DNA of 64,000 nucleotides from Minisyncoccota bacterium (GCA_963668425.1 OY764332.1:359504-423503); one strand, 5' to 3'. Positions 926 through 39,215 are shown, numbered from the stretch's first letter. Made by a program: numbers and translations. Notes: a model not told the origin generated them from the sequence alone.

Positions 926-978
926 GATAGATCTTATACCCCATTCTTTTTTTGGTATACTTACTATGTTGAATCTGT

Positions 979-1599
979 ATGCAGTTACTGATGTTTTATA
1001 TTTTTGTACTCAGTGTGGTTTTTTTGGTAGTAGGGGGTGTTGTTGTACTTCCTTTTGCTGTGGAGGCAGTATCGGCGCGTGCCGTGATTGCTATTCAGGA
1101 TGATGAGGTTACGCCACCTCCTCCGCCCCCACCTACAACACCTACAAAGCGAACTTCTTCAGGGTTTTCTACTGTGGGTGGGTATTCTCTGCAATCTCTT
1201 TCAGATTGGTTTCTTTCCTTTTCCGAAGATCCACCTTCGCCGGTATCTGCACCTTCTGCGGATGTGCCTCCTGTTCCGGATACCTTCGTTGGTGTTCCTG
1301 AGCAACCTTCTTCTGTTGTGGTTGAAGAGATACGTCCATCACAGCCCGCGTTGACTCCTGTTACTGAGGATTCTTCCTCCACTGATTCTGATGCTGTGTC
1401 TTCCTCTGTGGAGTATCTGCGTGAAACTGTGCGTGATGTGGTTGATCTTCCGACACCTTCAGTTTCTACTTATGTCGGAAGCGTTGAGGAGCCACTGATT
1501 GTTTCTATTAAAGTGCTCTTTTCGAATGTGGAGTTAGAGGTGGTTGATCTTGATGTTGAGGAAGGTGCCGGCGTAGGATTCTTTTCCACACTGTTGTGA
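979..1599 (+). CDS. Hypothetical proline-rich membrane/secreted protein: N-terminal TM, PPPPPPPTTPT tract, acidic C-terminus.
   Basis: ATG start, N-terminal hydrophobic helix, low-complexity Pro/Ser/Val-rich body. Confidence 0.4.
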   Translation: MQLLMFYIFVLSVVFLVVGGVVVLPFAVEAVSARAVIAIQDDEVTPPPPPPPTTPTKRTSSGFSTVGGYSLQSLSDWFLSFSEDPPSPVSAPSADVPPVPDTFVGVPEQPSSVVVEEIRPSQPALTPVTEDSSSTDSDAVSSSVEYLRETVRDVVDLPTPSVSTYVGSVEEPLIVSIKVLFSNVELEVVDLDVEEGAGVGFFSTLL

Positions 1600-1626
1600 T
1601 GTGGTGCACAATACTATATACGGTCT

Positions 1627-2193
1627 ATGTTTATCTGGTGGAAATTTTTTAAAAAGAAAGGACTTGTAGCACTTGTGTTTCTTGTATTGGCGCTTTTGTC
1701 TGCGGTTTTTTCATTTCGTACGCACATTGTGAGTCGCGCTACTGCGTTTACGTCAGGTGTCACTATTGTTGTACAGAACCTTTCATTGTACGAAACGGCA
1801 CCTGTTGTGTTTACCTATGCTCTTTCTCAGGATGACACTGTGCTGTTTCTTGAGGAACGGGCAGTTGATGTTGTGCAGGAGCCAGTAGAAGCAATTCCTG
1901 GGACTAATCAGCATGCTCTATCTCTTTCACATACGTTCTATATCTCAAAGGAAGCCGTTCGAGGTTGGTATACCTTTACGGTTACCGCTCGGCAGCCACA
2001 TGAAACGGCGGGACAGGAGATAGCGCGGACAGATCTCTTTGTCGCTCCTTCACTGTTGGCGTTTCCTTTCTTCCGTTTCGGTATGTTTTTTTCCCTTCTT
2101 CTTTCACTCCTCCTTTTCTCGCTTTCTTTGCGTGATCGTTTTAATGCTCGGAGATATGCAGATTCTCCTGATACGGCGGGGACGGTTTCGTAA
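1627..2193 (+). CDS. Hypothetical membrane protein (TM helices at N- and C-terminus).
   Basis: ATG start. Hydrophobic N-terminal segment and C-terminal FPFFRFGMFFSLLLSLLLF helix. Confidence 0.35.
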   Translation: MFIWWKFFKKKGLVALVFLVLALLSAVFSFRTHIVSRATAFTSGVTIVVQNLSLYETAPVVFTYALSQDDTVLFLEERAVDVVQEPVEAIPGTNQHALSLSHTFYISKEAVRGWYTFTVTARQPHETAGQEIARTDLFVAPSLLAFPFFRFGMFFSLLLSLLLFSLSLRDRFNARRYADSPDTAGTVS

Positions 2194-2343
2194 GGAAATG
2201 ATGTGCACAAATCGTAACATCCTTGGTGTGTTATCTTGTTGCAGGTATGTGGTACTTCATCGTTGCTGTGGGATACGGTTTATTAGGTGATGTGCTGAGA
2301 GGTGTGCTTTTATGTGGTTCATCGTAGTGATATGCTGTAAATA

Positions 2344-2802
2344 ATGGATATTGCTATTCGGACACTTGAGGAGACGCGAATTTTTGCTGAGCAAATAGTA
2401 TTGGCGTTGCGTGGGGTGCCGTGGCGTTCTGATCGGGCAGTTGTGTTGGGGTTGTCCGGTCCACTTGGTGCAGGAAAGACCTCTCTTGTTCGGTGTGTTG
2501 CTGAAGTGTTGGGAGTTACTGATGTGGTAACAAGCTCTTCGTTTGTATTACGGTCTGATTACACCACAACTGATACTGTTTTTAAGCACTTAACTCATAT
2601 TGATGCATATAGATTTGAGCGCGCTGATGAGGTTGATACTATCGGTTGGGATGTAGTGCTTGCAGCACCGAACACTCTTGTGGCTGTTGAGTGGGCTGAC
2701 AAAGTTGCCGACCGTATCCCTGCTGATATGTTTTCTGTTGTTATCACTGTTCGTGGTGATGAGCGGGTTTTTACCACTACTATACTTTCGGATCATCAGT
2801 GA
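2344..2802 (+). CDS. tsaE: tRNA threonylcarbamoyladenosine biosynthesis protein TsaE (YjeE-family P-loop ATPase).
   Basis: Walker A 'LGLSGPLGAGKTSLVR' in the characteristic TsaE N-terminal context; ~150 aa. Confidence 0.7.
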   Translation: MDIAIRTLEETRIFAEQIVLALRGVPWRSDRAVVLGLSGPLGAGKTSLVRCVAEVLGVTDVVTSSSFVLRSDYTTTDTVFKHLTHIDAYRFERADEVDTIGWDVVLAAPNTLVAVEWADKVADRIPADMFSVVITVRGDERVFTTTILSDHQ

Positions 2803-2899
2803 AGAAATTGTTGCGTTTGATGTTTGTGGGTTTGTGGTAGTTGTGCCGGTGTTATACTGATTCTGTTTGGTGGCGGTGTGGTGTTGCCCGATGTTGTGT

Positions 2900-5254
2900 A
2901 TGATTTTGTATATAGATACCCTTGCCCTACTGTACCGTGCGTATTATGCATTTCCTGATTTGCGGGCGTCTGATGGTACACCTGCAGGAGCGTTATTCGG
3001 ACTGACGAATACACTTTTTCGTGTTGTTGCTGAGATGGAGCCGGATCATATTGTTGCGTGTTTTGACAGACCAGAGGAAACTTTTCGGCAGCAGTTGCAC
3101 GCTGAGTATAAGGCGAATCGTGAGATGCCGGAGGAGGATATGATTATGCAGATTGATTTGTCGCGGGAAATGTTGCAGTCGTATGGTGTGCATACTGTTG
3201 AAAAAGCAGGATACGAAGCGGATGATTTATTAGGGACACTTGTTGTTATTGATGCAAAACGTGAAGAAGAAGCGGTTATTGTCTCTGGTGATGGGGATTT
3301 GTTGCAGTTGACAGTGTATCCGAATGTGCGTGTGTATTTACTTCGGAAAGGGATGAGTGACTTTGTGTTGTATGACGAGAAGGAGGTAGAGAAGAAGAAT
3401 GGGTATCCGGCGAGGTATGTTATTGATTATAAAGGACTTGCGGGAGATAGTTCTGATAATATCACTGGTGTTCCGGGTGTTGGTGATGTCTATGCGAAGC
3501 GACTCATTACTGCTTTTGGTGATCTTGATGCGATTTATAAGGCGGTTGACGCCGAGGTTTTAGAAGGTGAGGGGTTTACAAAGCGGATTGTTACCTTGCT
3601 TGAGCAAGGTCGTGACAGCGCGTTTGCCTCGCGTGAGTTGGCGACTATTCATACTGATGTGCCGATTATTGCTCCACACACCAAGGCAAAGAAATGGAAA
3701 GATTTCATAGTATATTCTGATGCTCAGAAGATGCTTGAACGATATGCTTTCACATCACTCTTGTCGCGCTTGAGTGCTATTACTGGAGGTGGTGATGGTG
3801 CTGGAGGCAATAATGGATCTTCTGACGTTGTTGACACACCTTCTGGCGCTGTTTTTGAGGATGCTGCTACTCGGGCGGTGTCTGTCGCATTGTGGGTACT
3901 TGATGCGACCAAAACAAATGCAAGTTTTGAAGATGTGTGTGTTTGTACTGGTCAGCGTTCTCCAGAGGATGCACTTGCGTTTATTGAGAAGGAGTTGAAG
4001 GCGAATAACTTGTTGTCGGTGTGGAGGGATATTGAGCAACCACTTCTTCCTGTTGTTGAGGAGATGGAGCGGATTGGAGTTTGTTTTGACTTACAGGGTG
4101 CGAAAAGATTGAGCGGTATGTATCAGAAAAAGATTGCATCTTTGACAAAAGAAATATACAACCTTGTTGGCAAAGAGTTTAATATTAGTTCTCCGAAGCA
4201 ATTAAGTGAGGTGTTGTATGGTGATCTTAATTTAAAGCCAAGGCGTGCATCAAAGACCGCTTCTGGAGGAAAGACGACCAAGGAATCAGTGTTGTTGCAA
4301 ATGGTTGATGATCATCCTGTTGTGTCGTTGGTGCTTGAATATAGACGTTATGAGAAATTGCGCTCCACCTATGTTGATGCATTGCCTTCGTTTGTTGCTG
4401 CTGATGGGCGAATACACACAACCTTACAACAGAATGGGACAGTGTCAGGACGGTTTTCTTCTCGAGATCCGAATTTGCAGAATATACCAGCTGGTGGTGA
4501 GGATGGTATCGCTATTCGCAATCTGTTTGTTGCTGCTGATGGGTGGGAGATGGTGGCAATTGATTATTCGCAGGTGGAGTTGCGGCTCGCCGCTATTTTG
4601 TCGCAAGATAAGGCACTATTGGATGTTTTTCGACGAGGTGTGGATGTTCATCGGGCAGTTGCTGCGCAGGTTTTTTCGGTTTCGCAGGATGCTGTAACAC
4701 CAGAGCAGCGTCATAATGCGAAGACAATTAATTTTGGGGTTCTTTATGGCATGGGGGCACAGTCACTGAGTCGTTCGTTGGCTGTCCCGTTGACTGAAGC
4801 AGATGCATTTCTCACTGACTACAAAAAAGCATTTCCGGCGTTGTTTGATTACCTTGATGGACTCAAAGGAGAAGCGTTGACTTCTGGTTTTGTGACCACT
4901 GCGTTTGGGCGGGTGCGACCGATTAGTGGTATCACCTCTTCACTTGCTTTTGTGCGGGCACAAGCAGAGCGGACTGCTGCAAATACAGTGATACAAGGTA
5001 CCGCCGCTGATATCACCAAGATTGCGATGGTTCGTGTTGATGCGATGTTGAAAGAGACAGGGTTGGTGGAAGATGTGCGCATGCTGTTGCAAATTCATGA
5101 TGAATTGTTGTTTGAGATTCGCCCTCGTGTTGCTGATCGGGCGATAGAGAAGATTGTAGAGGTGATGGAATCGGTGTATCCGGAGAATAAGAAGCCAATA
5201 CCACTGTTGGCAAGTGTTGGCAGAGGGAAGTCGTGGGGGATGTTGAAAGAGTGA
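2900..5254 (+). CDS. polA: DNA polymerase I. It has a 5'-3' exonuclease domain plus a family A polymerase domain, with only a ~100-aa vestige where the 3'-5' proofreading domain would be.
   Basis: N-terminal 5' nuclease region (LYRAYYAFP, GDSSDNITGVPGVG). Pol A motifs 'RDPNLQNIPAGGEDGIAIRNLF', 'RHNAKTINFGVLYGMG', 'QIHDELLFE'. Start moved to the internal ATG (MILYIDTLALL). Confidence 0.9.
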   Translation: MILYIDTLALLYRAYYAFPDLRASDGTPAGALFGLTNTLFRVVAEMEPDHIVACFDRPEETFRQQLHAEYKANREMPEEDMIMQIDLSREMLQSYGVHTVEKAGYEADDLLGTLVVIDAKREEEAVIVSGDGDLLQLTVYPNVRVYLLRKGMSDFVLYDEKEVEKKNGYPARYVIDYKGLAGDSSDNITGVPGVGDVYAKRLITAFGDLDAIYKAVDAEVLEGEGFTKRIVTLLEQGRDSAFASRELATIHTDVPIIAPHTKAKKWKDFIVYSDAQKMLERYAFTSLLSRLSAITGGGDGAGGNNGSSDVVDTPSGAVFEDAATRAVSVALWVLDATKTNASFEDVCVCTGQRSPEDALAFIEKELKANNLLSVWRDIEQPLLPVVEEMERIGVCFDLQGAKRLSGMYQKKIASLTKEIYNLVGKEFNISSPKQLSEVLYGDLNLKPRRASKTASGGKTTKESVLLQMVDDHPVVSLVLEYRRYEKLRSTYVDALPSFVAADGRIHTTLQQNGTVSGRFSSRDPNLQNIPAGGEDGIAIRNLFVAADGWEMVAIDYSQVELRLAAILSQDKALLDVFRRGVDVHRAVAAQVFSVSQDAVTPEQRHNAKTINFGVLYGMGAQSLSRSLAVPLTEADAFLTDYKKAFPALFDYLDGLKGEALTSGFVTTAFGRVRPISGITSSLAFVRAQAERTAANTVIQGTAADITKIAMVRVDAMLKETGLVEDVRMLLQIHDELLFEIRPRVADRAIEKIVEVMESVYPENKKPIPLLASVGRGKSWGMLKE

Positions 5255-5982: not shown

Positions 5983-6064
5983 TTTTGCTTTGTGCCGTAA
6001 TTATTACCTGTGTTCTGCGTGTTTCTCTCGTGTGTGATTGTGGGTAGTATGGCATACTGGCTAT

Positions 6065-6637
6065 ATGATAGGAATACTTATGGGTACTGTTCGGGATGCG
6101 GGTAAGGATATGGTGGTGGTAGAAACAAAGGGAGGTGTTGGGTATGCGGTTGTTGTTTCGGCAGCAACAAAAAATAGCGCTCTTTCCAAAGAGCCCTGTA
6201 CCTTGTACACACATACTGCTGTTCGTAAAGATACAATAGATCTGTTTGGGTTTCTTGAGCAGGAGGAGTATTCTACCTTTTTACTACTTCTCTCTGTTTC
6301 TGGCGTTGGTCCGAAGAAGGCACTTGCAGTGCTTGATGCGATGCCGGTGCAGACACTTTTGTCAGCCATCCAAAAAGAGGATGTTGTCACCTTGGCTTCG
6401 TTTGGGGTAGGGAAAAAGCAGGCACAACGGATGGTGCTTGACCTGCAGAAGAAGATAGAGATTGATTCGGTTGATTCGGAGGTATCCAATGACCTTTTCG
6501 CTACTCTTATTGCACTTGGGTATGAGAAAAGGGAAATTTCAGAGGTCTTGAAGGATGTTGTTCTACAAGGTAATACAGTTGAGGAGCAGGTGCAGACATT
6601 TTTAAAACTTGTGCGTGAGGCGAAGGTTCGTCGCTGA
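6065..6637 (+). CDS. ruvA: Holliday junction DNA helicase RuvA.
   Basis: 'MIGILMGTV' start. HhH motifs 'LLLLSVSGVGPKKALAVLD' and a C-terminal domain III-like tail. ~190 aa. Confidence 0.85.
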   Translation: MIGILMGTVRDAGKDMVVVETKGGVGYAVVVSAATKNSALSKEPCTLYTHTAVRKDTIDLFGFLEQEEYSTFLLLLSVSGVGPKKALAVLDAMPVQTLLSAIQKEDVVTLASFGVGKKQAQRMVLDLQKKIEIDSVDSEVSNDLFATLIALGYEKREISEVLKDVVLQGNTVEEQVQTFLKLVREAKVRR

Positions 6638-6640
6638 GGT

Positions 6641-7627
6641 ATGAGGATTTTTCATAAGGTGTTTTTGGCTTTATGTGTTGTTGGTGTTATATTTTATTTT
6701 TCTTCATATCCGCAGCAACAGATTTCACTTACCTCATCAGAGCATCATCAAAAAAAACAGGAGGATTCATATACGATATTTTTTGCCGGTGATGTGATGT
6801 TGGACAGAGGTGTTGGTTTGCAAGTTGCACGGTACGGTGATGATGATTGGCGATTTCCGTGGCGTTTTATTGCTGAACAATTTTTATCGGCAGATGTGGT
6901 GTTTTTGAATCATGAGGGTGTGATGAGTGATGTTGGGCAGGATGCCGGTGGTGTGTATTCTTTTAATTTCCCTCTCGCCGCTCTTGATGGATTGTTATTT
7001 GCTGGTGTTGATGTGGTTAGCTTGGCGAATAATCATAGTTTTGATTGGGGAGGAGTGGCGCTATGTGACACAAAGAGACGGCTGAATGAGCATGATATCG
7101 GGACTGTTGGTGCTGGATGTTCGTATACAGAGGCAAATGCGCCATACGTTCATGCATTTGATGATGGGAGTAGTGTTGGTTTTCTTGGGTATACCTCATT
7201 TTATCCGAATGGTGTTGCCGGCAATACATACCCTGGTATTTCTGACTACACTCTGGAGAATATGCAACAGAATATTACTACTTTGAGGGAATCTGTTGAT
7301 GTGATCTTTGTTTCTCTACATTGGGGTGAGGAGTATCAGCCAAGGTCAAATGCAGAGCAGCAGATGATTGGGCGTGCACTTATTGATGCTGGAGCTGATA
7401 TTATTATTGGACATCACCCACACGTTATTCAGGAAGTTGAGGAGTATAATGGTGGGTGGATTTTTTATAGTTTGGGCAACTTTATTTTTGATCAGTATTT
7501 TTCTGCGGAGACGATGGAGGGTTTGGTTGCTATGGCAACTGTGCAAGGAGGTGCGATTGTGTCCGTTGATACTAAAAAAGTACTCCTTAATACCTATTTT
7601 CAGCCAATGTTTGTGGATGTGGAGTGA
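6641..7627 (+). CDS. CapA/PgsA-family calcineurin-like metallophosphatase (poly-gamma-glutamate capsule synthesis family).
   Basis: 'IFFAGDVMLDRGV', 'LANNHSFDWG' and 'GHHPHVIQEVE' are the conserved CapA motifs. N-terminal TM anchor. Confidence 0.75.
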   Translation: MRIFHKVFLALCVVGVIFYFSSYPQQQISLTSSEHHQKKQEDSYTIFFAGDVMLDRGVGLQVARYGDDDWRFPWRFIAEQFLSADVVFLNHEGVMSDVGQDAGGVYSFNFPLAALDGLLFAGVDVVSLANNHSFDWGGVALCDTKRRLNEHDIGTVGAGCSYTEANAPYVHAFDDGSSVGFLGYTSFYPNGVAGNTYPGISDYTLENMQQNITTLRESVDVIFVSLHWGEEYQPRSNAEQQMIGRALIDAGADIIIGHHPHVIQEVEEYNGGWIFYSLGNFIFDQYFSAETMEGLVAMATVQGGAIVSVDTKKVLLNTYFQPMFVDVE

Positions 7628-7674
7628 GTTTTATAATAGTATGTGCTGTTTCTAATATGTTATCTTGATGATGT

Positions 7675-8733
7675 ATGAAAGGTATGCAGTTAGGCACACT
7701 TTTGCCGATTTTTCTCTTCTTTTTACTCTTTGCTGGTATTCTCATTATCTACAGGGAAGAGATAGAAAAGATGGAGCTCTTTGGAAAATTGCACACGTCT
7801 CCGGTTCCCGCAACACGCATTGATCAACCTGCTGTCCCTTCTGCTCCGGTCATCCCACTATCTCTCACTTCTTCTGCGACTACTACATCAGTGTCCAATG
7901 TTCGTGTGATTTCTTTTGGGGATGGGCGTGTTGTTGATTCTACCTTACGTAATATTCCGATTGTTGATTTGCGTGCCGGTGTTGGATCGCTACACACCCT
8001 TTTACCAAACGTCAGTGATTATTACGCTCGAGCGTTTGTTGAAGAGTCGTCCGATTTGTATAATCCGTCTCCACATGTCGGTTCTGTTATTTTTCTTGAT
8101 AGGGTTTCTAATATCAAGGAAACAGACCCAGATCGTGAGTATTTTGTACTTCTTGTATCCAATGCTCTGTCAGCACCTATTACTATCACAGGTTGGAAGG
8201 TGCTTGATCGGCAGGACGGTGTTTCGTATACGTTTTCTCGTGGGGTTAAGGTATTTGGCTCAGGTGATGTTTCCTTGCCGATTGAGGTGTATTCTGGTGA
8301 CAGAATTTTTGTCTCTTCTGGGGATTCTCCGACCAACACTTCGTTTCAGGTGAATAAATGTTCTGGGTATCGTTCTCAGTTTGAGAACTTTACTCCGACC
8401 ATAAAAACATTTTGCTCAGATCCGGTTCAGGATTTTTCGGATTACGGAGATGTCCCTTTTTCTGATGCTGTGTGCTACTCAATGGTTTCCTCTCTTTCGC
8501 CTTGTACGACAGTGCGTACTATTCCTTCTGGTGTTACTGCAAAATGTCGTAGTTTTTTGCAGGACGTTTTGACTGAAAAAGGGTGTGTGTCCCGTCATCG
8601 CAATGATCCTGATTTTTTTACTGGAGAGTGGCGGTTGTTTTTAAAATCGGATAAAGAGATTTGGAAAAATCGTGATAATGTTTTGTATTTACTTGACGAG
8701 AATGACCTTCTCGTCGCCACTCTGGTGTATTAG
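7675..8733 (+). CDS. Membrane-anchored hypothetical protein with a lamin-tail-domain (LTD)-like segment.
   Basis: N-terminal TM. 'EYFVLLVSNALSAPITITGWKVLDRQDGVSYTFSRGVKVFGSGDVSL' matches the LTD pattern (EYIELxN...L.GW.L.D......F). Confidence 0.4.
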   Translation: MKGMQLGTLLPIFLFFLLFAGILIIYREEIEKMELFGKLHTSPVPATRIDQPAVPSAPVIPLSLTSSATTTSVSNVRVISFGDGRVVDSTLRNIPIVDLRAGVGSLHTLLPNVSDYYARAFVEESSDLYNPSPHVGSVIFLDRVSNIKETDPDREYFVLLVSNALSAPITITGWKVLDRQDGVSYTFSRGVKVFGSGDVSLPIEVYSGDRIFVSSGDSPTNTSFQVNKCSGYRSQFENFTPTIKTFCSDPVQDFSDYGDVPFSDAVCYSMVSSLSPCTTVRTIPSGVTAKCRSFLQDVLTEKGCVSRHRNDPDFFTGEWRLFLKSDKEIWKNRDNVLYLLDENDLLVATLVY

Positions 8734-9096: not shown

Positions 9097-9244
9097 CTGT
9101 GTGCAGGGTTTGCTACCACTAGAATGATAGCATTGTTTCTGCTGTTGGCAAATTTATCAGAATATACCACACACTTTTGTCATTTGTATTGATTGCAGTG
9201 ATTTAGTGTTGCTATGTGCTGTTGTATGCGGTATAGTGTTTTTA

Positions 9245-9520
9245 ATGGCTAATACAGCTGCGGCTAAAAAGGCAATGCGCGTTTCTGCGCGGAAGAGGGT
9301 GTTTAACCTGCGTCGTTCGCGTACCATGCGGTCTCTTATGAAGGAGGTTGTTTTGAAGTATCGGAGTGGTGATGCTGAGGGTGCACGCACGCAGTTTCGT
9401 GAAGCACAGCAGGCGATTGACAAGGCGACAAAGCGGGGGGTGATTAAACAGCGGACAGCATCTCGCAGAAAGGCGATGTTGTCTCGGGCAATAAAGCCGG
9501 AGGTGGTAAGCAGTACATAG
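9245..9520 (+). CDS. rpsT: 30S ribosomal protein S20.
   Basis: 'MANTAAAKKAMRVSARKRVFNLRRS...' matches the S20 N-terminus (MANxKSAKKRA). Start taken at the internal ATG. Confidence 0.8.
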   Translation: MANTAAAKKAMRVSARKRVFNLRRSRTMRSLMKEVVLKYRSGDAEGARTQFREAQQAIDKATKRGVIKQRTASRRKAMLSRAIKPEVVSST

Positions 9521-9903: not shown

Positions 9904-11643
9904 ATGGGTAGTATGAAGGGTGTTTCTGAATCAAAGCATGTTTTTGTCGCATCTGCGTGGCCCTATGCGAATGGGTTGTTGCACTTGGGACACATTGCTT
10001 CGCTTGTCGGGGCAGATGTGCTCGCGCGATATCATCGGCTGAAAGGGGATCAGGTATTATTTGTTTCAGGGAGTGATTGTTATGGCACTCCTGTTGCACT
10101 TGAGGCAGTTGCACAAGGTGTTGACCCTGCGTCCATTGCTGATAAGTACCATGCCGAATTTTGTAAATCATTTGATGCACTTTCATTTTCGTTTGATTTA
10201 TACACTAAAACTACCACACTGGAGCACCAAAAGGTAGTGCAAGATATTTTTTTACGTTTATATACATCTGGATATATCTACACCAAAGTTGATAAAGCAT
10301 TGTACTCTCCCGCTCTGCAACGATTTTTGCCGGATCGGTTTGTTGAAGGTGAGTGTCCTCACTGTGGTTTTGATGGTGCTCGAGGTGATCAGTGTGATGC
10401 GTGTGGTACGTTACTTGACTCATTGTTGCTTAAAAATCCTCGTGTTAACTCCAAGATGTTTGTAGGACAAGATGCTTCTGTTGACCAATCTCTTGAGGTG
10501 CGTGAGTCGGAACATTTTTATTTAAAACTTACCGCGTTTCAAGATGTGTTGGAGCAGTGGGTTGGTTCTGTGAGTGATTCATGGCGAGTACAGGCAGCAC
10601 AATTTACGAAAGGTTTTCTAAAGCAGGGGTTACATGATCGTGCTATTACACGAGATACTGATTGGGGGGTTCCAATACCGGTTGACGGCTATGATGATAA
10701 GCGGATATATGTGTGGTTTGAGGCAGTGTTGGGGTATTTGTCCGCGGCAATGCACTGTTGTCATGATCGGGGAGATGCTGCTGGTTGGAAGCAGTGGTTT
10801 TTTTCCGATGATGCGGTGCATTATTACGTACACGGTAAGGATAATGTGCCGTTTCATAGTATTATTTTGCCGGCGATTTTGAAAGGTGCAGGTACATATC
10901 ACTTACCGGATATGTTGTTTTCTTCGGAATATTTATCCCTTGAGGGAAAACAACTTTCTACTAGTCGCGGGTGGGCGATATGGGTTTCTGATTTTCTTGA
11001 GCAGTTTGATTCTGAGTTGTTGCGGTATTATATGTTGGCGCATGGTCCTGAGACCTCCGATACTGATTTTCGTTGGTCTGAATTTGGGCAGAGGGTGAAT
11101 GGGGAGTTGATCGGCACTTTTGGTAATTTGGTACATAGGATATGCTCATTTACACAGAAAAATTTTCCTGATGGAGTTTCCTTCAATGGTGAGGTTGATG
11201 ATTTTTCAAAGCAGCTACTTTCTGGTGCTGAGGGGGCGTTTGCTCTTGTTGGTGCACACATAGAATCTGGGCAGTTTCGGCAAGGGTTTCGTGAGGTGTT
11301 AAGGGTTGCTGAGGAGGCAAATCGTTTTGCACATACCAAGGAGCCATGGAAGCATTTGGATGATGTGGCTCGTGTTCAGACCGATCTTTCCGTGTTGTTG
11401 CATACTATTCGCACTCTTTCGGTCTTGGTGCAGCCGTTTTTGCCGAGGACTTCCGTTAAGATACAAGGTTTTTTTGGTTCTGATAGTATTGAGAGCACGT
11501 CTTGTGTTTCCCATGCACTTTCCACTTGGCGTTATTCTGAATTACCAAAAACTTTTACTTTGCAGGAGATTGAACCACTTTTTCAGAAGGTTGAAGATGA
11601 CGTGATACAGAAGCAGCAAGAAATATTACGTGCGCGTGGGTGA
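9904..11643 (+). CDS. metG: Methionyl-tRNA synthetase.
   Basis: 'WPYANGLLHLGH' (HIGH region), zinc knuckle 'CPHCGFDGARGDQCDACG', KMSKS-region 'GKQLSTSRG', and an anticodon-binding C-terminal domain. Confidence 0.9.
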   Translation: MGSMKGVSESKHVFVASAWPYANGLLHLGHIASLVGADVLARYHRLKGDQVLFVSGSDCYGTPVALEAVAQGVDPASIADKYHAEFCKSFDALSFSFDLYTKTTTLEHQKVVQDIFLRLYTSGYIYTKVDKALYSPALQRFLPDRFVEGECPHCGFDGARGDQCDACGTLLDSLLLKNPRVNSKMFVGQDASVDQSLEVRESEHFYLKLTAFQDVLEQWVGSVSDSWRVQAAQFTKGFLKQGLHDRAITRDTDWGVPIPVDGYDDKRIYVWFEAVLGYLSAAMHCCHDRGDAAGWKQWFFSDDAVHYYVHGKDNVPFHSIILPAILKGAGTYHLPDMLFSSEYLSLEGKQLSTSRGWAIWVSDFLEQFDSELLRYYMLAHGPETSDTDFRWSEFGQRVNGELIGTFGNLVHRICSFTQKNFPDGVSFNGEVDDFSKQLLSGAEGAFALVGAHIESGQFRQGFREVLRVAEEANRFAHTKEPWKHLDDVARVQTDLSVLLHTIRTLSVLVQPFLPRTSVKIQGFFGSDSIESTSCVSHALSTWRYSELPKTFTLQEIEPLFQKVEDDVIQKQQEILRARG

Positions 11644-28303: not shown

Positions 28304-30487
28304 CTATAGATTGGTGTTGCCGAAGGTGTCAGATCCTGCATTGGTGTTGTCATGGTCTCTTTCTATTAGAATTTCGCGAGGTTTTGAGCCGACTTGTGGA
28401 CCCACTATACCATTTTCTTCCAACATATCAATCAGGCGGGCGGCACGGGAGTAGCCAATCTTTAATTTTCGTTGCAAGAGGGAGGTGGATGCTTTTTGTG
28501 CTTCTATGACGATGCGTAGTGCTTCAGGGTAGTGCTCGTCTTCATCATCTCCTCCTCCAAAATCAGTACTTCCTGCGACTTCTTGATTTTTGGTGATGTC
28601 AATGATACCTTCGGCGACACCGTTGTGTTTTAATAGATATGCGACCACCTTTTTTACTTCTATGTCAGTTACGAATGCTGATTGTGCCCGAACTGGTTTT
28701 TTGTTTTCAGAAGAGGAGAATAGCAAATCACCCGCGCCGATGAGATTTTCTGCCCCTGTTGTGTCAAGGATGGTGCGGGAGTCAATGTTTGAAGTGACTT
28801 GTAGTGCGATTCGTACTGGGATGTTCGCCTTTACGACACCGGTGATGATGTTGACAGACGGTCGTTGTGTTGAGATGATGAGATGAATGCCGACAGCGCG
28901 ACTTTTTTGTGCTATTCGAACAATGTTTGCCTCTATTTCTCGCGGGAAACTTTGCATCAGGTCTGCTAACTCGTCTATGACTACCACTAGGCAGGGTAGA
29001 TATCCTTCCTCATCGTCAATTGCTTCGTTGTATGCGCTTATGTTTCGTGCGCGGTGTGCTTCTAATAACTCGTAACGGCGTTCCATCTCTGAAACAATCC
29101 ATACTAATGCTTGTAATGCCTTCTTCGGGTCGGTGATAGGGTCGGTGTAGAGGTGTGGCACTCCTTTGTACAGTGTTAATTCCACCCGTTTCGGATCAAT
29201 GAAAATAAAGCGAAGGTCTCGTGGACCGTAATTGAACAGGAGTGAGAGGATGAAGTTGTGGATGAGTACACTTTTGCCTGATCCAGTAGTGCCGGCGACT
29301 AAAATGTGTGGCATTTTTTCTAAACTTTTCGCGAATATTGAGCCGTTGATGGTTTTTCCTATTACCAGTCCTAGGGAGTTTTTGATGCGGGTAAATTCTT
29401 TTGACTTTAGGAGGGTTTGCAGTCCTACTGTCGCCCGAGTGGAGTTTGGCACCTCAATGCCGATGAGCGATTGTCCCGGTATTGGTGCTTCAATGCGGAT
29501 TGGGTGCGCGGCGAGCGCTAACTCAAGATTTTGTTGTAAGCTGGTGATGCGAGAGACGCGTACCCCTTCTGCCGGGCGCACTGAATAGCGAGTGAATGAT
29601 GGTCCGACAGTCACTTCTTCAACCTCTACGTGTATTTTGAAGTTTTGTAGTGTTCGTTGTATGGCGAGTGACTGTGCCTTGGTGTTGTTTGCCGCTTGCC
29701 CCTTCCCTTTTTCGGCATTCAGTAGTGATGAAGGAGGGGCGATGTACGGGGGCGTCTCATTATCTGTGTGGTATTCTTCTTCATCCTCGTCGTCATCATT
29801 GTCCTCTTGCTCTTCATCATCATCATATTCATCCTCGTCATATTCATCCTCTTCATCATCCTCTTCATCTTCATCTTCCTCCTCTTCCTCTTCTTCATCC
29901 TCATCATCATATTCCTCATCTTCATCTTCATCCTCATCATATTCATCTTCCATGAAATCAAGATCGTTCAGCCATTTCCAGATGGTGAATGGTGAGAAAA
30001 TCTTAAGGATGTAGAGTGCACTGAGTAGTGCCAATGGCATCAACACGTATGAGAAAACCCCTAACACATCCTGCAGTGTACTGAAGATTGTCGCGCCGAG
30101 CACTCCGCCGGCAATTTCATCGGATCCTGCAGCGAAGAGTACTGATGCACTTACGATTGCCAGTATGCCACCGAGGATGAGTCGGATGTATGATAGTGGT
30201 TCTTTGACAAAGAGAAGATAGACCCCTCCTGTGGTTAGTAAGGTGATGAGGACAATGAAGCTCCAGCCGAGCAGTGCAGGAGAGCCGTCGGGTTTCATAA
30301 AGAGGTATTCGCGTATCCATGTGCCGAATGAGCCGGCGGTATCAAAGATGATAAGTGTGCAGAATAGTGCCGCGAGGAGGCATACGATGCTCACAGAGAC
30401 CGCGCGAAACCGTGATGATGTGTTTGTATACCAGTCGGCAGATCGCCGCAGCAGAGAATCTTTTCCTTTTTTTTTCTTTCGTGTCAT
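28304..30487 (-). CDS. ftsK: DNA translocase FtsK/SpoIIIE with an extremely acidic (~65-aa poly-D/E) linker.
   Basis: N-terminal TM helices. Walker A 'GTTGSGKSVLIHNFI'. Gamma winged-helix 'LLQRKLKIGYSRAARLIDMLEENGIVG'. Linker 'DEYDEDEDEDEEYDDEDEEEEEEEDEDEEDDEEDEY...'. Confidence 0.85.
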   Translation of the reverse strand: MTRKKKKGKDSLLRRSADWYTNTSSRFRAVSVSIVCLLAALFCTLIIFDTAGSFGTWIREYLFMKPDGSPALLGWSFIVLITLLTTGGVYLLFVKEPLSYIRLILGGILAIVSASVLFAAGSDEIAGGVLGATIFSTLQDVLGVFSYVLMPLALLSALYILKIFSPFTIWKWLNDLDFMEDEYDEDEDEDEEYDDEDEEEEEEEDEDEEDDEEDEYDEDEYDDDEEQEDNDDDEDEEEYHTDNETPPYIAPPSSLLNAEKGKGQAANNTKAQSLAIQRTLQNFKIHVEVEEVTVGPSFTRYSVRPAEGVRVSRITSLQQNLELALAAHPIRIEAPIPGQSLIGIEVPNSTRATVGLQTLLKSKEFTRIKNSLGLVIGKTINGSIFAKSLEKMPHILVAGTTGSGKSVLIHNFILSLLFNYGPRDLRFIFIDPKRVELTLYKGVPHLYTDPITDPKKALQALVWIVSEMERRYELLEAHRARNISAYNEAIDDEEGYLPCLVVVIDELADLMQSFPREIEANIVRIAQKSRAVGIHLIISTQRPSVNIITGVVKANIPVRIALQVTSNIDSRTILDTTGAENLIGAGDLLFSSSENKKPVRAQSAFVTDIEVKKVVAYLLKHNGVAEGIIDITKNQEVAGSTDFGGGDDEDEHYPEALRIVIEAQKASTSLLQRKLKIGYSRAARLIDMLEENGIVGPQVGSKPREILIERDHDNTNAGSDTFGNTNL

Positions 30488-34537: not shown

Positions 34538-34571
34538 TGCAGTTCTGAGATTTGCCATCAACTATGGCAAT

Positions 34572-34728
34572 CAAAACCAAAAACCCGCTGAAAGAAAAGC
34601 GGGTTTTTGGTTTGTCTCGTAGGGGTTACTTGAGCAATCTATTGAACAGAGAATATTTGGATGGGATACTGTACTGCATTGCCCAACATCCTATGTGTTG
34701 GCAGAGAGTGCAAAACTGGTGCTTAGGT
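34572..34728. repeat. Direct repeat copy 1 (~150 bp incl. a 23-bp insertion). Contains a bidirectional terminator-like hairpin AAAAACCCGC-TGAAAGAA-AAGCGGGTTTTT followed by a conserved ~90-bp segment.
   Basis: Near-identical to 35744-35880, with about 5 substitutions in the shared ~130 bp. Confidence 0.85.
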
Positions 34729-35019
34729 TGCGTATTTTACAGTGTTGATTGCAATAACAATAAGTCCGGTAACCCCAGAAACCAATAGGATTGACTGAAT
34801 GGCAATATATAGCCAGCTCTTCTTGAGCGATTCTTTGATTTTTTGATCAATAGTATCACCAAACTTCCCACTATCTATGTGCTCTCCTATGATGGTTTTG
34901 ATTATTCTTTCAACCTCCTTGCTTTCAGAAAGCATGTGTAGCATGCGGCTTTCAAAGTCTTCATTAGCAACAAACGTGTCTCGTTGTTTATCTGTGATTG
35001 TTTCTTTATTTTTTGCCAT
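34723..35019 (-). CDS. Hypothetical small tail-anchored membrane protein (98 aa, single C-terminal TM).
   Basis: ORF with 'WLYIAIQSILLVSGVTGLIVIAI' C-terminal helix. A-rich codon usage unlike the flanking genes. Overlaps the upstream 73-aa ORF by 14 nt. Confidence 0.35.
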   Translation of the reverse strand: MAKNKETITDKQRDTFVANEDFESRMLHMLSESKEVERIIKTIIGEHIDSGKFGDTIDQKIKESLKKSWLYIAIQSILLVSGVTGLIVIAINTVKYAT

Positions 35020-35227
35020 CTTTCATTTCATCAGAGGGTGTGTATTTTTTGGAGCCAACAGATAACCCCTGTCCTTTTGACTGCTCTGCAACATCCAAGA
35101 GAAAGGCAATTGTGCTTGCATCTCCTTTCATTCCGTACTCTTTAGTGATGGTGCGAAGTTTGTCAAAGTGTCCGTTAGTGAATTCAACGTTAATCTTGTT
35201 GTCAGTGTTTTCTAAGTTGATAGCCAT
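35006..35227 (-). CDS. Hypothetical small soluble protein (73 aa), first gene of a two-gene minus-strand pair.
   Basis: ATG start. A -10-like CATACT lies immediately upstream, so the transcript may be leaderless. No recognised domain. Confidence 0.3.
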   Translation of the reverse strand: MAINLENTDNKINVEFTNGHFDKLRTITKEYGMKGDASTIAFLLDVAEQSKGQGLSVGSKKYTPSDEMKDGKK

Positions 35228-35340
35228 ACCAATAGTATGCCATGACTGCCTAATCTGTGCTATTCTGAAGACACAATAGTTTTCCCCACGTTAACCACAT
35301 TTTTTGTTGGTTGCCGTTGAAACTGAAAGCATTGAAATGA

Positions 35341-35358
35341 CTCCTCTACGGAGAGGAG
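35341..35358. promoter_or_regulatory. Perfect 18-bp palindrome CTCCTCT-ACGG-AGAGGAG in the divergent intergenic region between the small-gene pair and the STAS-like gene. Candidate operator or hairpin.
   Basis: 7-bp arms with a 4-bp spacer. Followed by a T-run and a TATACT -10-like box 7 nt before the ATG at 35391. Confidence 0.35.
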
Positions 35359-35390
35359 TAGGGGTATTTTTTCTTTTGTATACTAAATAT

Positions 35391-35723
35391 ATGAAAAAAG
35401 TGTTTCTTAAAGCATATGGCACTGTCTTGGTTGGTAGGAAAGATGGTACTGAGGCATTTGTTGCACTAGAGAGAAATATGCGGGACATGCCTGAGGGTGA
35501 GGTACTATTTTTTGATTTTTCAGACATTATCACCTTTGCACCAACATGGTGTGATGAGTTCTTTGGAGAAGCTACAATCAAATATCCTGGAAGAATAGTC
35601 ATTGATGAATCAATTGGCGAAGGATTAAGGAAGCCCTTTGAGGTTATAGCAGAAGCAAGAAAAATAGCATTCACTTTTGGATCGTTTGTTGAAACCAAGA
35701 ATGAGAAGATGAGCCAAGATTAA
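35391..35723 (+). CDS. Small STAS-like (DUF4325-like) domain protein (~110 aa).
   Basis: The pattern 'K.YGTVLVGRKDGTEAF..LE......EGEVLFFDFSDIITFAPTWCDEFFGE' resembles the DUF4325 STAS-like signature (..DF..V..isSSF.DEl.G.). Start moved to the internal ATG 'MKKVFLKAYG'. Confidence 0.35.
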   Translation: MKKVFLKAYGTVLVGRKDGTEAFVALERNMRDMPEGEVLFFDFSDIITFAPTWCDEFFGEATIKYPGRIVIDESIGEGLRKPFEVIAEARKIAFTFGSFVETKNEKMSQD

Positions 35724-35743
35724 GGAATGATACACCGGCAACC

Positions 35744-35880
35744 TAAAACTAAAAACCCGCTGAAAGAAAAGCGGGTTTTTGGTTTGTCTTCTATTGAACA
35801 GAGAATATTTGGATGGGATGCTGTACTGCATTGCCCAATATCCTATATGCTGGCAGAGAGTGCAAAACTGGTGTTTAGGT
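35744..35880. repeat. Direct repeat copy 2 (~130 bp); see copy 1.
   Basis: Shares the AAAAACCCGCTGAAAGAAAAGCGGGTTTTTGGTTTGTCT...GGCAGAGAGTGCAAAACTGGTG core. Confidence 0.85.
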
Positions 35881-35896
35881 GATATAGTAGAAGTAT

Positions 35897-36367
35897 ATGG
35901 GAGATATAGCATTTACTGTTAATGCACTAAATGTATTAATTGCGTGTGGAGGATTAATTGCACTCACTTTGGGGTGGTTATTCAAAATACACGGCAGGGT
36001 GTCAGAGCTTGAAGGCATAAACAAAGGTAAAGAATTAGCAAAAGAACAAAGCCCACTTACTCTCACAGATGCAGGCAATGCCTTATTGTGTGATAGTGGT
36101 GGTAAAAAATACATTGAAGATAACGAAAAATCATTGATAAAAAACTTTAATGACTTGGACAATGCTTTTGATATACAGGAGAAGGCAAAAGACATAATAC
36201 GGGAAAAGATGAAAGAGCCAAACGCTCTTAAAAATATCAAGATATACCTTTTTGATAATGGAAAGTCCGTTGAAGATATAGTTTTGGTGATGGGGTTGGA
36301 ATTGCGCGATGCTGTCTTTAAGCATAAAGGTATAGCAGTTGAGCAAGTGGACGCAGACAAAAGTTGA
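35897..36367 (+). CDS. Hypothetical membrane-anchored protein (N-terminal TM + ~120-aa soluble domain) immediately upstream of the MTase-HNH gene.
   Basis: 'VNALNVLIACGGLIALTLGWLF' helix. A-rich codon usage. No family recognised. Confidence 0.35.
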   Translation: MGDIAFTVNALNVLIACGGLIALTLGWLFKIHGRVSELEGINKGKELAKEQSPLTLTDAGNALLCDSGGKKYIEDNEKSLIKNFNDLDNAFDIQEKAKDIIREKMKEPNALKNIKIYLFDNGKSVEDIVLVMGLELRDAVFKHKGIAVEQVDADKS

Positions 36368-36463
36368 CCTTGCTCTATATAAGCAAAAGAACATACAAGT
36401 TTGAGTTCTTAACAATTCGCTCTTATAAACGCTGGCTGAATTGCCTGACTGCCATAGAGTAAA

Positions 36464-37915
36464 ATGCTTGTGGTTTATACTGTTTTCAAGATGTCTACTC
36501 CTAATTTCAAGCCGAATACACTCTTCACGAGAGATAATTTGTATATTTTGCGTGGCATGAACAGTGAGTGTGTTGACTTGATATATCTTGATCCGCCATT
36601 TAATTCAAAAAAAAACTATGTTGCACCTTTGCCTGTGAAGGATGAAGAAATACTTGCCTCATTCAAGGATGTATGGAAACTCATTGATATTGATGAAGCG
36701 TTGCATGAGGAATTGCAGGAGACTCAGCCATGTTTGTATGAGATTATTAAGGGTGTTGAAGCAGCACACTCCAAGGCGATGTTTTCATACTTGATATACA
36801 TGACCATGCGACTGGTTGAAATGCATCGTGTGCTAAAACCAACAGGAAGTATATTTCTGCACTGCGATCCAACGGCAAGCCACTACTTAAAAATAGTGAT
36901 GGATTGTATTTTTGGAAAGAGTAATTTTAGAAATGAGATTATTTGGTGTTACGGTGAAACGGCCAGAGGTGCAAAGGCAAAAGCCAGTCAGTTTGCACGA
37001 AATAATGATGTGATACTTTTTTACGGAAAAACAAGTCAACATCTCTTTAACAAAACATATTTTGAAAGGAAAATAAAGTTTGAGGGGTCAGGGTATCAGC
37101 GGGAGGATGATGGACGATGCTTTAGAACAGCACCACGAGGCGATTATACAGATGACAGTATTGAAAGGTTAAGAAGGGAAGGTAGGATTTATGAGACAAG
37201 AAACGGGACTATACGCATTAAATATCATGAAAAATGTGATGAAACCTTTGTGTATGAAAAAAAACTTTTTGGTAATGTTTGGTCAGATATACCTGATATG
37301 ATGCACGCAGAAGAGATAGAAAAAACCGGCTATTCAACTCAAAAGCCGTTAAAACTATTACAGCGAATCATCAATACAGGTAGCAAAAAAGGTGGTTGGG
37401 TACTTGACCCATTCTGTGGATGTGCAACTACCATGGTTGCCGCAGAAAAACTGGGGAGGAAGTGGGTTGGCATTGATGCCTCTCATTTTGCAAAATTTTT
37501 TGTTAAAAGCAGAATGGAAAAAGAATTGGAGAAAAAAATTCCTTTTATTTTTCTCAAGGATATATCTGGTAGGCAGTTCAGTGATGAAAAAGAATTGAGT
37601 GATTGGGAAAATAAGAAAAGGATGTATGAAGAGCAGGAAGGTGTATGCAATGGATGCGTTGGTCATTATCATGAAAAAGATATGACTATTGACCATATCA
37701 TACCAACATCAAAGGGCGGTCAAGACACACAAGATAACAAGCAATTACTTTGTTTTCACTGTAACACGACAAAGGGGACAGGAACAATGCCAACGCTATG
37801 GCAAAAACTTGCAAAAGGGCATGTATTGGAGTATCACGAAGCGGATAAACTCATACAAGAGCACAAAGACAGAAAAAAGAAACTTGAAAAAGAGTATGGA
37901 ACTAAAACACTATGA
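36464..37915 (+). CDS. DNA methyltransferase (beta-class N6-adenine/N4-cytosine type, motif IV before motif I) fused to a C-terminal HNH endonuclease domain.
   Basis: 'DLIYLDPPFNSKKNY' (DPPF catalytic motif) near the N-terminus and 'VLDPFCGCATTMVAAEKLGRKWVGID' (SAM-binding motif I) near residue 315. C-terminal 'CNGCVGHYHEKDMTIDHIIPTSKGGQDTQDNKQLLCFHCNTTKG' is a Zn-finger HNH motif. Confidence 0.8.
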   Translation: MLVVYTVFKMSTPNFKPNTLFTRDNLYILRGMNSECVDLIYLDPPFNSKKNYVAPLPVKDEEILASFKDVWKLIDIDEALHEELQETQPCLYEIIKGVEAAHSKAMFSYLIYMTMRLVEMHRVLKPTGSIFLHCDPTASHYLKIVMDCIFGKSNFRNEIIWCYGETARGAKAKASQFARNNDVILFYGKTSQHLFNKTYFERKIKFEGSGYQREDDGRCFRTAPRGDYTDDSIERLRREGRIYETRNGTIRIKYHEKCDETFVYEKKLFGNVWSDIPDMMHAEEIEKTGYSTQKPLKLLQRIINTGSKKGGWVLDPFCGCATTMVAAEKLGRKWVGIDASHFAKFFVKSRMEKELEKKIPFIFLKDISGRQFSDEKELSDWENKKRMYEEQEGVCNGCVGHYHEKDMTIDHIIPTSKGGQDTQDNKQLLCFHCNTTKGTGTMPTLWQKLAKGHVLEYHEADKLIQEHKDRKKKLEKEYGTKTL

Positions 37916-38063
37916 GCAAAAAAGCATTTCTAAAACTTTTGAACAAAACCCTTACACCCGTGAAAGCAAAACCTGAAACAAAGGAACAGAGGAAAGACGG
38001 TGGTTGTAATGTGTTTTTGCACAAGATGTGGACATCTGTGTAAGTGTGTTATACTTTTGGTAT

Positions 38064-39215
38064 ATGGAAGTAGGAAAAAAGGTTGGGGCAATTTTTATTA
38101 TTTTAATTGTATTAGCGGTGGGGTATTATGTGACGCAGGGTGGTGTTGGAGGTGATGGATCTGATAAGGTTCTTACCATCGGTTTTGTCGGTCCTTTGAC
38201 GGGAGATGCGGTGAGCTATGGTGAGCCAATTAGCAATGCTGTTCGTATGGCGGTGGATGACATTAATCAATCTGGTGGTGTGAATGGTATGATGCTTGAG
38301 GTTATTTATGAGGATGGTCGGTGTTCTAATGAGGATGCATTGAACGCAGCACAGAAGTTGGTGAATGTTGACCGAGTCAAGATGATTGTTGGTGGTGTCT
38401 GTAGTGGGGAGGCATTGGCTATGTTGCCGATTACTGAAGTAGCGGGTGTGATTATTGTCTCACCGTCTGCGTCAAGTCCTGATCTGACAGGGATTGGGCA
38501 GTACTTTTTCCGAAACGCTCCCTCTGATGATGCAGGTGGTAGAAAACTGGCAGAGATTGTAATGACATCCTATAAAAAAGTTGCGCTTATTTCTGAGGAG
38601 ACCGATTACGCGCAGGGTTTTGCGCGGGTGTTTAAGGAGAATGTGTTGCTTGCGGAAGGTGAGATCGTTGCGGATGAGAACTTTACCCCTGAGACCAGTG
38701 ACTTTAGGAGTATATTGACTAAAATAAAGGCAGCTGAGCCGGAGGCAATTTTTGTTAATCCGCAAACGGAGATTGCAGGTGGCACTGTTATCAAGCAGGC
38801 AAGAGAATTGGGTATCACGGTACCTCTGTTTGGTTCAAATGTGACCGGTGGTACGGCGTCAATAGAGATTGCCGGAGATCATATAGAAGGACTTGTGTTT
38901 GTTGATGCGCCAGGACTGAGCCCAGCTAATCCAAAAGCGGTTGCGTTTCTTGACCGGTATCGTGCGCGTTATGGAGAGCCGAGTATAGAATTTTACACCG
39001 GAGCCGCGTATGATGCTGTGCATATTCTTGCGTTGGCAGTAGAGATGGTTGGATCTGTGGAGGATATTGAGCCGGTGCGTAACTACCTTAGTACGATGGG
39101 TAATTTTGACGGTGTTGTTGGTAGTTACCGATTCCGACCCGATGGTGATCCTGAAGGCATTGGATTTATCACGAAGCAAATTGAAGGAGGGGAAATTGTA
39201 GTGACAGAGCAGTAG
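38064..39215 (+). CDS. Periplasmic binding protein type 1 (LivJ/LivK-like branched-chain amino acid/amide ABC substrate-binding protein), membrane/signal anchored.
   Basis: 'LTIGFVGPLTGDAVSYGEPISNAVRMAVDDINQSGGVNGMMLEVIYEDGRCSNEDALNAAQKLVNVDRVKMIVGGVCSGEA' is the typical Leu/Ile/Val-binding family N-terminal lobe. Confidence 0.7.
   Translation: MEVGKKVGAIFIILIVLAVGYYVTQGGVGGDGSDKVLTIGFVGPLTGDAVSYGEPISNAVRMAVDDINQSGGVNGMMLEVIYEDGRCSNEDALNAAQKLVNVDRVKMIVGGVCSGEALAMLPITEVAGVIIVSPSASSPDLTGIGQYFFRNAPSDDAGGRKLAEIVMTSYKKVALISEETDYAQGFARVFKENVLLAEGEIVADENFTPETSDFRSILTKIKAAEPEAIFVNPQTEIAGGTVIKQARELGITVPLFGSNVTGGTASIEIAGDHIEGLVFVDAPGLSPANPKAVAFLDRYRARYGEPSIEFYTGAAYDAVHILALAVEMVGSVEDIEPVRNYLSTMGNFDGVVGSYRFRPDGDPEGIGFITKQIEGGEIVVTEQ

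Follow-up and report, generated by a model that had tools for sequence, protein, structure and literature searches.

The island described here occupies positions 34619-38042 of a stretch of 64,000 nucleotides (nt) of Minisyncoccota bacterium DNA (GCA_963668425.1 OY764332.1:359504-423503; this whole stretch is hereafter called the window), in which it lies between the gene of a surface protein and a livJ-like gene. It is probably the local, and smallest, version of a hypervariable defence/addiction island with a fixed chromosomal position in a Kaiserbacteria lineage, built as a mosaic of four separately transcribed, independently travelling units, one of which encodes a methyltransferase-HNH fusion. 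The functions proposed for its genes were inferred from sequence, predicted structure and context, and the comparison covered about a dozen independent loci, designated here by L numbers. All five open reading frames (ORFs) listed in the first-pass annotation of this DNA, of 73, 98, 110, 156 and 483 amino acids (aa), were present. The features considered were the following:

34619-38042, no strand: variable island proper, in which nucleotide homology to the syntenic relatives L007 and L022 is interrupted; GC content of 0.37-0.39 inside vs. about 0.45 outside
34573-34728, no strand: repeat copy 1, consisting of a bidirectional terminator hairpin (34574-34613), a 20-nt copy-specific insertion and a 91-nt conserved segment
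34723-35019, minus strand: 98-aa tail-anchored membrane protein, candidate toxin/effector, second gene of a pair (ORF and hydropathy)
35006-35227, minus strand: 73-aa soluble protein, predicted ribbon-helix-helix, first gene of the pair
35391-35723, plus strand: 110-aa soluble protein, weakly DUF4325/STAS-like (sub-threshold Pfam match)
35745-35880, no strand: repeat copy 2, consisting of a terminator hairpin (35746-35785) and the 91-nt segment
35897-36367, plus strand: 156-aa protein with an N-terminal anchor and a helical C-terminal domain (ORF and hydropathy)
36464-37915, plus strand: 483-aa beta-class methyltransferase with a C-terminal HNH domain (PF01555, 1.7e-39; PF01844, 4.6e-11)

A variable slot between fixed flanking genes

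Homology to L007 and L022 stopped at 34614/34618, just past the terminator of the surface-protein gene, and restarted at the -10 element of livJ (38043/38044), and these break points therefore define the limits of the island. Locus L007, which was found by scanning species-representative genomes with the livJ-like protein, belongs to Ca. Kaiserbacteria APA_bin_25, and the flanks of its slot presented 74-80% nucleotide identity to the window. Between the same two flanking genes, L007 harboured a 6.9-kb island (GC content of 0.36-0.41 vs. 0.47-0.50) with two pairs of the 73/98-aa type, a 352-aa unknown gene, a 110-aa gene, two SocA/Panacea genes with a 162-aa partner and two tandem 156-aa homologues, the methyltransferase-HNH gene being absent. 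In the case of L022, an 847-kb contig with protein identities of 86% for the livJ homologue and 68% for the surface-protein homologue, a total of 14.9 kb of low-GC DNA separated both genes. This DNA carried genes for an rve integrase, an OLD/AriA-like ATPase, a methyltransferase-HNH protein, a Peptidase_M78 and an SDH_protease, as well as four 73-aa-like genes (three of them with tail-anchored partners), three 156-aa-like genes and three Panacea pairs. The cargo across the three genomes thus ranged over 3.4, 6.9 and 14.9 kb, with the flanking genes remaining fixed. Judged from these genomes, the slot is a hypervariable hot spot and not one inserted five-gene system.

It had been proposed that the genes were inserted between two native ones. 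Their accessory character stood, as the cargo differs by genome, but the 110-aa gene is common to the window and L007 at a divergence like that of the flanks (76% vs. 74-80% nucleotide identity), so that this part of the proposal did not hold for the whole segment. Moreover, two properties of genomic islands, atypical composition and a content varying between syntenic genomes, were found together. With respect to the borders, neither a mobility gene nor a tRNA or att site was found there: the islet of the window presented no integrase, and the nearest tRNA appeared more than 14 kb away, so a tRNA integration site was rejected. In comparison with defence/addiction hot-spot islands, the slot shared the low GC content, the fixed flanks and a genome-specific cargo including restriction-modification genes, Panacea pairs and an OLD/AriA-like ATPase. 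It differed in that the window copy had no integrase, tRNA or mobility gene, an rve integrase appearing in only one relative (L022), and in that most of the inhabitants had no entry in Pfam, PADLOC, PHROGs or NCBIfam.

A separate observation concerned positions 2555-6361 of L022, where the rve integrase gene and the gene of an OLD/AriA/PtuA-like AAA_15/21 ATPase appeared immediately upstream of the methyltransferase-HNH gene. The presence of such an ATPase beside an HNH protein recalls Septu-type pairs.

Composition of the islet

The sliding composition check bore out that the islet is A/T-richer than its surroundings, since positions 34540-37920 had a GC content of 0.383 and an A content of 0.328, both of them being the extremes of the window. 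The other 3,381-nt segments of the 64 kb presented a GC content of 0.448 ± 0.013 (minimum 0.416) and an A content of 0.230 ± 0.023 (maximum 0.291). The contrast in codon usage was also confirmed, the proportion of A at third positions being 0.32-0.37 in the islet genes and 0.13-0.27 in the native plus-strand genes. The latter preferred T/G at third positions, with a strong strand bias, whereas A3 and T3 were both close to 0.3 in the genes of the islet. Furthermore, the cumulative GC skew climbed near-monotonically over positions 1-64000, being positive in nearly all 1-kb steps, and third codon positions were T/G-rich on the plus strand of the same region independently of gene orientation. The skew and the strand bias place the whole window on a single replichore, and it is because this bias is so strong that the islet stands out. 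Taken with the differing slot cargo seen in the synteny check, the lowest GC content of the window upheld the proposal of a foreign composition and of exchangeable DNA.

Promoter-like elements, terminators and a direct repeat

Given the promoter-like elements found for each unit and the two terminators present in the islet, the latter looks like four separate transcription units with very short or absent leaders. In particular, a motif scan identified the promoter-like sequence TGATATAGT, separated by 8 nt from the ATG of the 156-aa gene at 35897. The motif TGnTAYAMT followed by 4-10 nt and ATG occurred eight times in the window, compared to 1.7 in shuffles, and five of these occurrences preceded ORFs of at least 60 aa (0.08 expected), including the 156-aa gene (35897) and livJ (38064). 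Motifs of this type also appeared at window positions 11784, 12861 and 24980, and the instances in and next to the islet were located at 35880-35897, 36464-36491 and 38028-38064. The -10 elements of the 156-aa gene and livJ were confirmed by the motif scan; those of the remaining units, placed right before the 73-aa and 110-aa genes and before the Met10 codon of the fusion, were read by eye. The placement of TGnTAYAMT suggests leaderless or near-leaderless mRNAs, and it implies that the livJ-like gene starts at 38064 rather than at 38028, and the fusion gene at 36491 rather than at 36464.

In L007, a 64-nt promoter-containing repeat was found three times (8489-8552, 9187-9250 and 9958-10021), preceding both tandem 156-aa homologues and livJ, as if the livJ promoter had been copied for each inserted gene.

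The islet also contained a direct repeat of 136-156 nt that had been overlooked in the first-pass annotation, with two copies in the window and none expected by chance. The copies were 98% identical in the hairpin part, a bidirectional terminator with a perfect 16-bp stem, and 95% identical in the 91-nt part. They flanked exactly the block of the 98-aa, 73-aa and 110-aa genes, being internal and not placed at both borders of the island, and the 3′ end of copy 2 lay 1-2 nt ahead of the -10 element of the 156-aa gene. The repeat was not found in the other 24 loci fetched or in the IMG/VR viral contigs. We read it as a recombination footprint, namely a segmental duplication of the 3′ region of the surface-protein gene, and not as an RNA gene. 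By bracketing the pair and the 110-aa units, it would mark this block as gained, or as losable, by recombination. The possibility of a structured RNA was rejected, as no credible Rfam family was detected for the repeat or for the islet even at permissive thresholds and the folding of the 91-nt segment on either strand (z-scores from -0.5 to +1.0) was no better than that of shuffled sequences.

The 73-aa and 98-aa gene pair

The first unit is made up of two small overlapping genes, of which the antitoxin-like one comes first, an arrangement that is characteristic of toxin-antitoxin modules. The 73-aa protein was predicted to be ribbon-helix-helix-like with extra beta-hairpins, and not helix-turn-helix, while the 98-aa protein presented a C-terminal hydrophobic helix (residues 73-91, with a Kyte-Doolittle mean of 2.29). 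Pairs with a tail-anchored second gene were found in the window, L007 (two pairs), L006, L018, L019/L020, L021 (two pairs), L022 and L023, and the homologues of the 98-aa protein always appeared directly downstream of a 73-aa homologue. Both genes overlapped by 14 nt in the window, L018 and L019, by 8 nt in L021 and by 4 nt in L007. Moreover, the 73-aa protein of the window was 74-78% identical to its versions in L018, L019 and L022, in contrast to 36% for that of the syntenic L007.

Neither a credible match nor a known toxin family was found for the 98-aa protein in Pfam, PADLOC, PHROGs and NCBIfam (best E = 0.021), and the 73-aa protein had no credible match in PADLOC, PHROGs or NCBIfam. A phage origin of the 73-aa family was also considered, with no support found in IMG/VR. 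With the known ribbon-helix-helix toxin-antitoxin modules (ParD, MazE, CopG-type and TacA), the pair shared the regulator-like gene in first position, the overlap of 4-14 nt, and the occurrence in multiple copies, within islands and in either orientation. It differed from them in that the second protein is tail-anchored and bears no similarity to a known toxin, and in that the first protein is the better conserved of the two and has the extra beta-hairpins. We infer that the pair is a toxin-antitoxin or abortive-infection cassette, in which the 73-aa protein would act as repressor of the promoter and keep its 98-aa partner neutralised, and the latter, once released, would damage the membrane.

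The 156-aa membrane-anchored protein

The 156-aa protein carried an N-terminal hydrophobic helix (residues 13-31), and its C-terminal domain, of about 90-110 residues, was conserved and helical. This domain is probably cytoplasmic, as judged by eye from the basic residues that come after the anchor. The protein belongs to a large, unannotated family with 1076 cluster representatives, and it had no credible match in PADLOC, PHROGs or NCBIfam. Its homologues adjoined the methyltransferase-HNH gene in the window, L002 and L003, and a HinfI-type system in L004, while an EcoRI-type system was one gene away in L005 and the methyltransferase-HNH gene was two genes away in L022. Elsewhere, they adjoined a 73/98-type pair (L006), Panacea genes (L007) or pilin-like genes (L021). 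Overall, in five of nine independent loci, a restriction-modification gene was at most one or two genes away from the homologue. This association may reflect a shared defence-island habitat, or else a generic role of the protein that is not tied to the fusion in particular, and the protein may act in membrane-level exclusion or sensing.

As regards a phage origin of this family, it was not found in IMG/VR, and no members appeared in PLSDB. The only member present in the curated phage records was that of Megaira phage MAnkyphage_25.80 (L024, 4785-5321), which was located in the early/immunity region of the prophage, with the exonuclease/Bet recombination genes on one side and a transcription regulator on the other.

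Proximity of both families to restriction-modification genes

The pair and the 156-aa family have a real but non-obligate association with restriction-modification genes, and a looser functional link is conceivable. In L019/L020, the pair was followed by a 31-nt gap and the methyltransferase-HNH gene, and in L018 by a methyltransferase and a 226-aa unknown gene. Pairs without a methyltransferase were found beside SMODS and SLATT genes in L021 and beside Panacea pairs in L023. In the window, the pair was oriented away from the methyltransferase gene, with two genes and a terminator between them.

These arrangements bear on a different explanation, according to which the pair, the 156-aa protein or both serve restriction-modification systems as accessory or regulatory components. 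A ribbon-helix-helix controller that its partner keeps at the membrane could, for instance, set the timing or level of expression of the fusion, and the islet would then be a loose restriction system plus a passenger gene. This explanation is rather unlikely, though it draws on the closely related pairs placed directly upstream of, and in the same direction as, the methyltransferases in L018 and L019/L020, and on the five loci in which 156-aa homologues are near a restriction-modification gene. Restriction genes preceded by small regulator genes are, furthermore, a known arrangement (C proteins). Operons controlled by C proteins, whose controller is of the helix-turn-helix type, were not matched here, as the fold predicted for the 73-aa protein is ribbon-helix-helix-like and its gene is transcribed away from the methyltransferase gene in the window. 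The explanation by accessory parts is opposed by the occurrence of both families without a nearby methyltransferase (L006, L007, L021 and L023), the several copies of each family per island and the divergent, distant position of the pair in the window. Likewise, the fusion gene of L019 had its own TATACT element upstream, and no conserved operator site was found upstream of the 73-aa genes, where the regions failed to align.

The methyltransferase-HNH fusion

Both domains of the fusion that had been proposed for the last unit were recovered with Pfam, but its start is probably Met10 (36491), where the homologues begin and just upstream of which TATACT is found. The fusion matched the PADLOC model MTase_II (2.4e-53), and the best PADLOC match of the isolated HNH domain was the type II restriction enzyme model REase_II (4.8e-9), followed by Cas9 and PtuB. 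In a set of 30 homologues (44-76% identity), DPPF (residues 43-46) and motif I (D315.FCGC.T322) were invariant, and the HNH residues C395/C398, D410-H411, N425 and C430..C433-N434..K437 were invariant or nearly so. The protein thus presents methyltransferase motifs and an intact predicted nuclease active site in the same chain. Motif IV precedes motif I, which places the methyltransferase in the beta class, and DPPF suggests what we take to be N6-adenine methylation.

The architecture is widespread. All the 8000 candidates scored in the homologue search (8000/8000) were significant, PF01555 and PF01844 were both kept in nearly all of the 120 best homologues, and the named sources were Kaiserbacteria, Thermodesulfobacteriota, Rhodothermaceae, Gammaproteobacteria and Poribacteria. 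Two relatives, P0033 and P0058, had in the HNH position a T5orf172 domain, which is presumably an alternative nuclease domain. As a related observation, among the protein hits P0033, P0058 and P0086, T5orf172/MUG113 appeared instead of HNH in some, and an added HTH_3 in another. The closest homologue (77% identical, L001) was solitary between AmiA-like and acetyltransferase genes, and that of L002 came after Mrr_cat and PDDEXK genes.

The comparison of the fusion with two relatives revealed an uneven distribution of identity. With respect to L022 (5102-6361), identity was 89% over residues 10-155, 26% over residues 156-290 and 63-70% over the remainder, whereas with respect to L001 (5675-7096) it was 86% and 82% over the first two of these regions, respectively. 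The target-recognition region (156-290) therefore diversifies between close relatives, and it looks as if it had been swapped between them. By analogy with known enzymes, the fusion is most likely a self-contained single-chain restriction-modification enzyme, whose activities are deduced from its domains. One recognition region would direct both of them: the DPPF-type methyltransferase, probably N6-adenine-specific, would mark the host DNA, and the HNH domain would cut unmarked incoming DNA.

The nearest analogues are the Type IIC/IIG single-chain enzymes (e.g. MmeI-like), with which the fusion shares the presence of methyltransferase and nuclease in one chain and a single recognition region that varies. 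Their known examples combine an N-terminal PD-(D/E)XK or Mrr-type nuclease with a gamma-class methyltransferase. The protein of the window differs from them in being of the beta class, with motif IV before motif I, and in having a C-terminal HNH domain. LlaGI is another single-chain case (PMC2790903). On the other hand, the HNH type II endonucleases include KpnI, MnlI, Hpy99I and PacI (PMC4081073), which share with the fusion the HNH beta-beta-alpha-metal motif and the zinc cysteine pairs. These enzymes are separate proteins beside a methyltransferase gene, instead of being fused to it, and in reviews HNH type II restriction enzymes appear only as separate proteins.

One metagenomic contig (L003) carried two paralogues of the fusion (360-3071 and 6001-8123), one placed after an AbiTii/Hypoth_Ymh gene and the other after a 156-aa homologue, with SocA/Panacea genes nearby.

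A role outside defence was considered as well, in which the fusion gene would be selfish or mobile, or would encode an orphan methyltransferase, with the HNH domain serving homing, mobility or DNA processing. Its solitary position between housekeeping genes in different places fits such a role, and the methyltransferase domain alone is frequent in actinophages; HNH domains are, in addition, common in homing endonucleases (PMC4081073). Even so, we regard it as improbable. The recognition region was swapped while both catalytic domains were kept, as expected from a diversification of specificity, and in the two relatives mentioned above HNH is replaced by T5orf172. Moreover, in a total of 50,697 phage records, none of the 147 matches covered at least 80% of the query (0/147), only the methyltransferase part being found, and PLSDB contained essentially no full fusion.

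The 110-aa gene

The label of STAS-like/DUF4325 protein given earlier to the product of the 110-aa gene was not sustained by the hidden Markov model check, in which the Pfam match to DUF4325 (E = 0.017, 15.3 bits) was below the cut-off of 23. The orthologue of L007 was also sub-threshold (E = 0.012, 15.7 bits). No STAS match by sequence was found in the PDB, where a profile search gave spurious S100 matches only, and hhalign against SpoIIAA yielded nothing, a comparison of low power given the two-sequence profile. PADLOC, PHROGs and NCBIfam gave no credible match for this protein either. Full-text searches for DUF4325 returned almost nothing, and as regards a phage origin, this family was not found in IMG/VR. 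A STAS-like fold is, accordingly to these results, doubtful.

The gene turned up in the window and in L007/L017 only, L017 being a duplicate of L007 from the metagenome scan. Its identity to L007:5131-5460 was 73% at the protein level and 76% at the nucleotide level, approximately the divergence of the flanks. By this comparison, the 110-aa gene is older in the slot than the other units.

Weighing of the mosaic reading

Only the fusion had matches in PADLOC-DB 2.0, to methyltransferase models, and the four small proteins had no credible match there, in agreement with the earlier statement that no described defence system has these parts. The suggestion of a restriction/abortive-infection or toxin-antitoxin-like module was right as to its components, a restriction-type enzyme and a toxin-antitoxin-like pair, but these do not form a single module.

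Several points weigh against the island being a mosaic of independent units with the functions proposed. No empty slot was found in any genome compared. Methyltransferase genes repeatedly adjoin both the pair and the 156-aa family, with a gap of 31 nt in L019, and this adjacency seems tighter than independent modules would predict. The 98-aa partners shared about 40% identity vs. 74-78% for the 73-aa proteins, and the usual order of conservation in antitoxin-toxin pairs is the reverse. Finally, no characterised member of the fusion architecture was found in the literature, the full-text searches yielding no paper characterising a beta-class methyltransferase joined to HNH, and for lack of such a precedent the term single-chain restriction enzyme is used by analogy.

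A single new five-gene defence system, as the first-pass annotation had it, is highly improbable and largely refuted by the comparative data: the genes are contiguous, share an atypical composition and have no known match, and three of the families come back together in the same islands, but all five appeared together in no other locus, the 110-aa gene being so restricted in distribution, gene order and orientation vary by locus, the islet has unit-specific promoter-like elements and two internal terminators, and each family occurs without the others (the fusion alone in L001, the pair without a methyltransferase, and the 156-aa family beside HinfI/EcoRI-type systems or no restriction-modification genes).

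Outside the island, in an FtsK-like protein encoded on the minus strand (28304-30487), a stretch of about 70 residues, nearly all of them Asp or Glu, lay between the membrane part and the motor domain.

Significance

The members of the Candidate Phyla Radiation (CPR)/Patescibacteria have tiny genomes, mostly without CRISPR, and rely heavily on restriction-modification, and their accessory gene pool is barely annotated. The present comparison offers a clean three-genome view of a Kaiserbacteria defence-island hot spot. It also provides a candidate single-chain methyltransferase-HNH enzyme with natural specificity variants, as the recognition region is the same in L001 but different in L022, and two uncharacterised families that recur beside restriction-modification genes, one of them with the 1076 cluster representatives mentioned above. 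It is conceivable, albeit with a low probability, that the pair and the 156-aa family are undescribed partners of restriction-modification in CPR/Patescibacteria, acting as membrane-tethered regulators or sensors or as a new membrane-acting abortive-infection layer by which what happens at the envelope would be coupled to restriction, and that the fusion represents a new, widespread single-chain restriction subclass. If these families were true functional partners of restriction systems, this would be new biology; otherwise, the island would be a routine mosaic. The real interest of the locus lies in the two families, which recur near restriction-modification genes without being obligate there, together with a widespread and uncharacterised fusion architecture.

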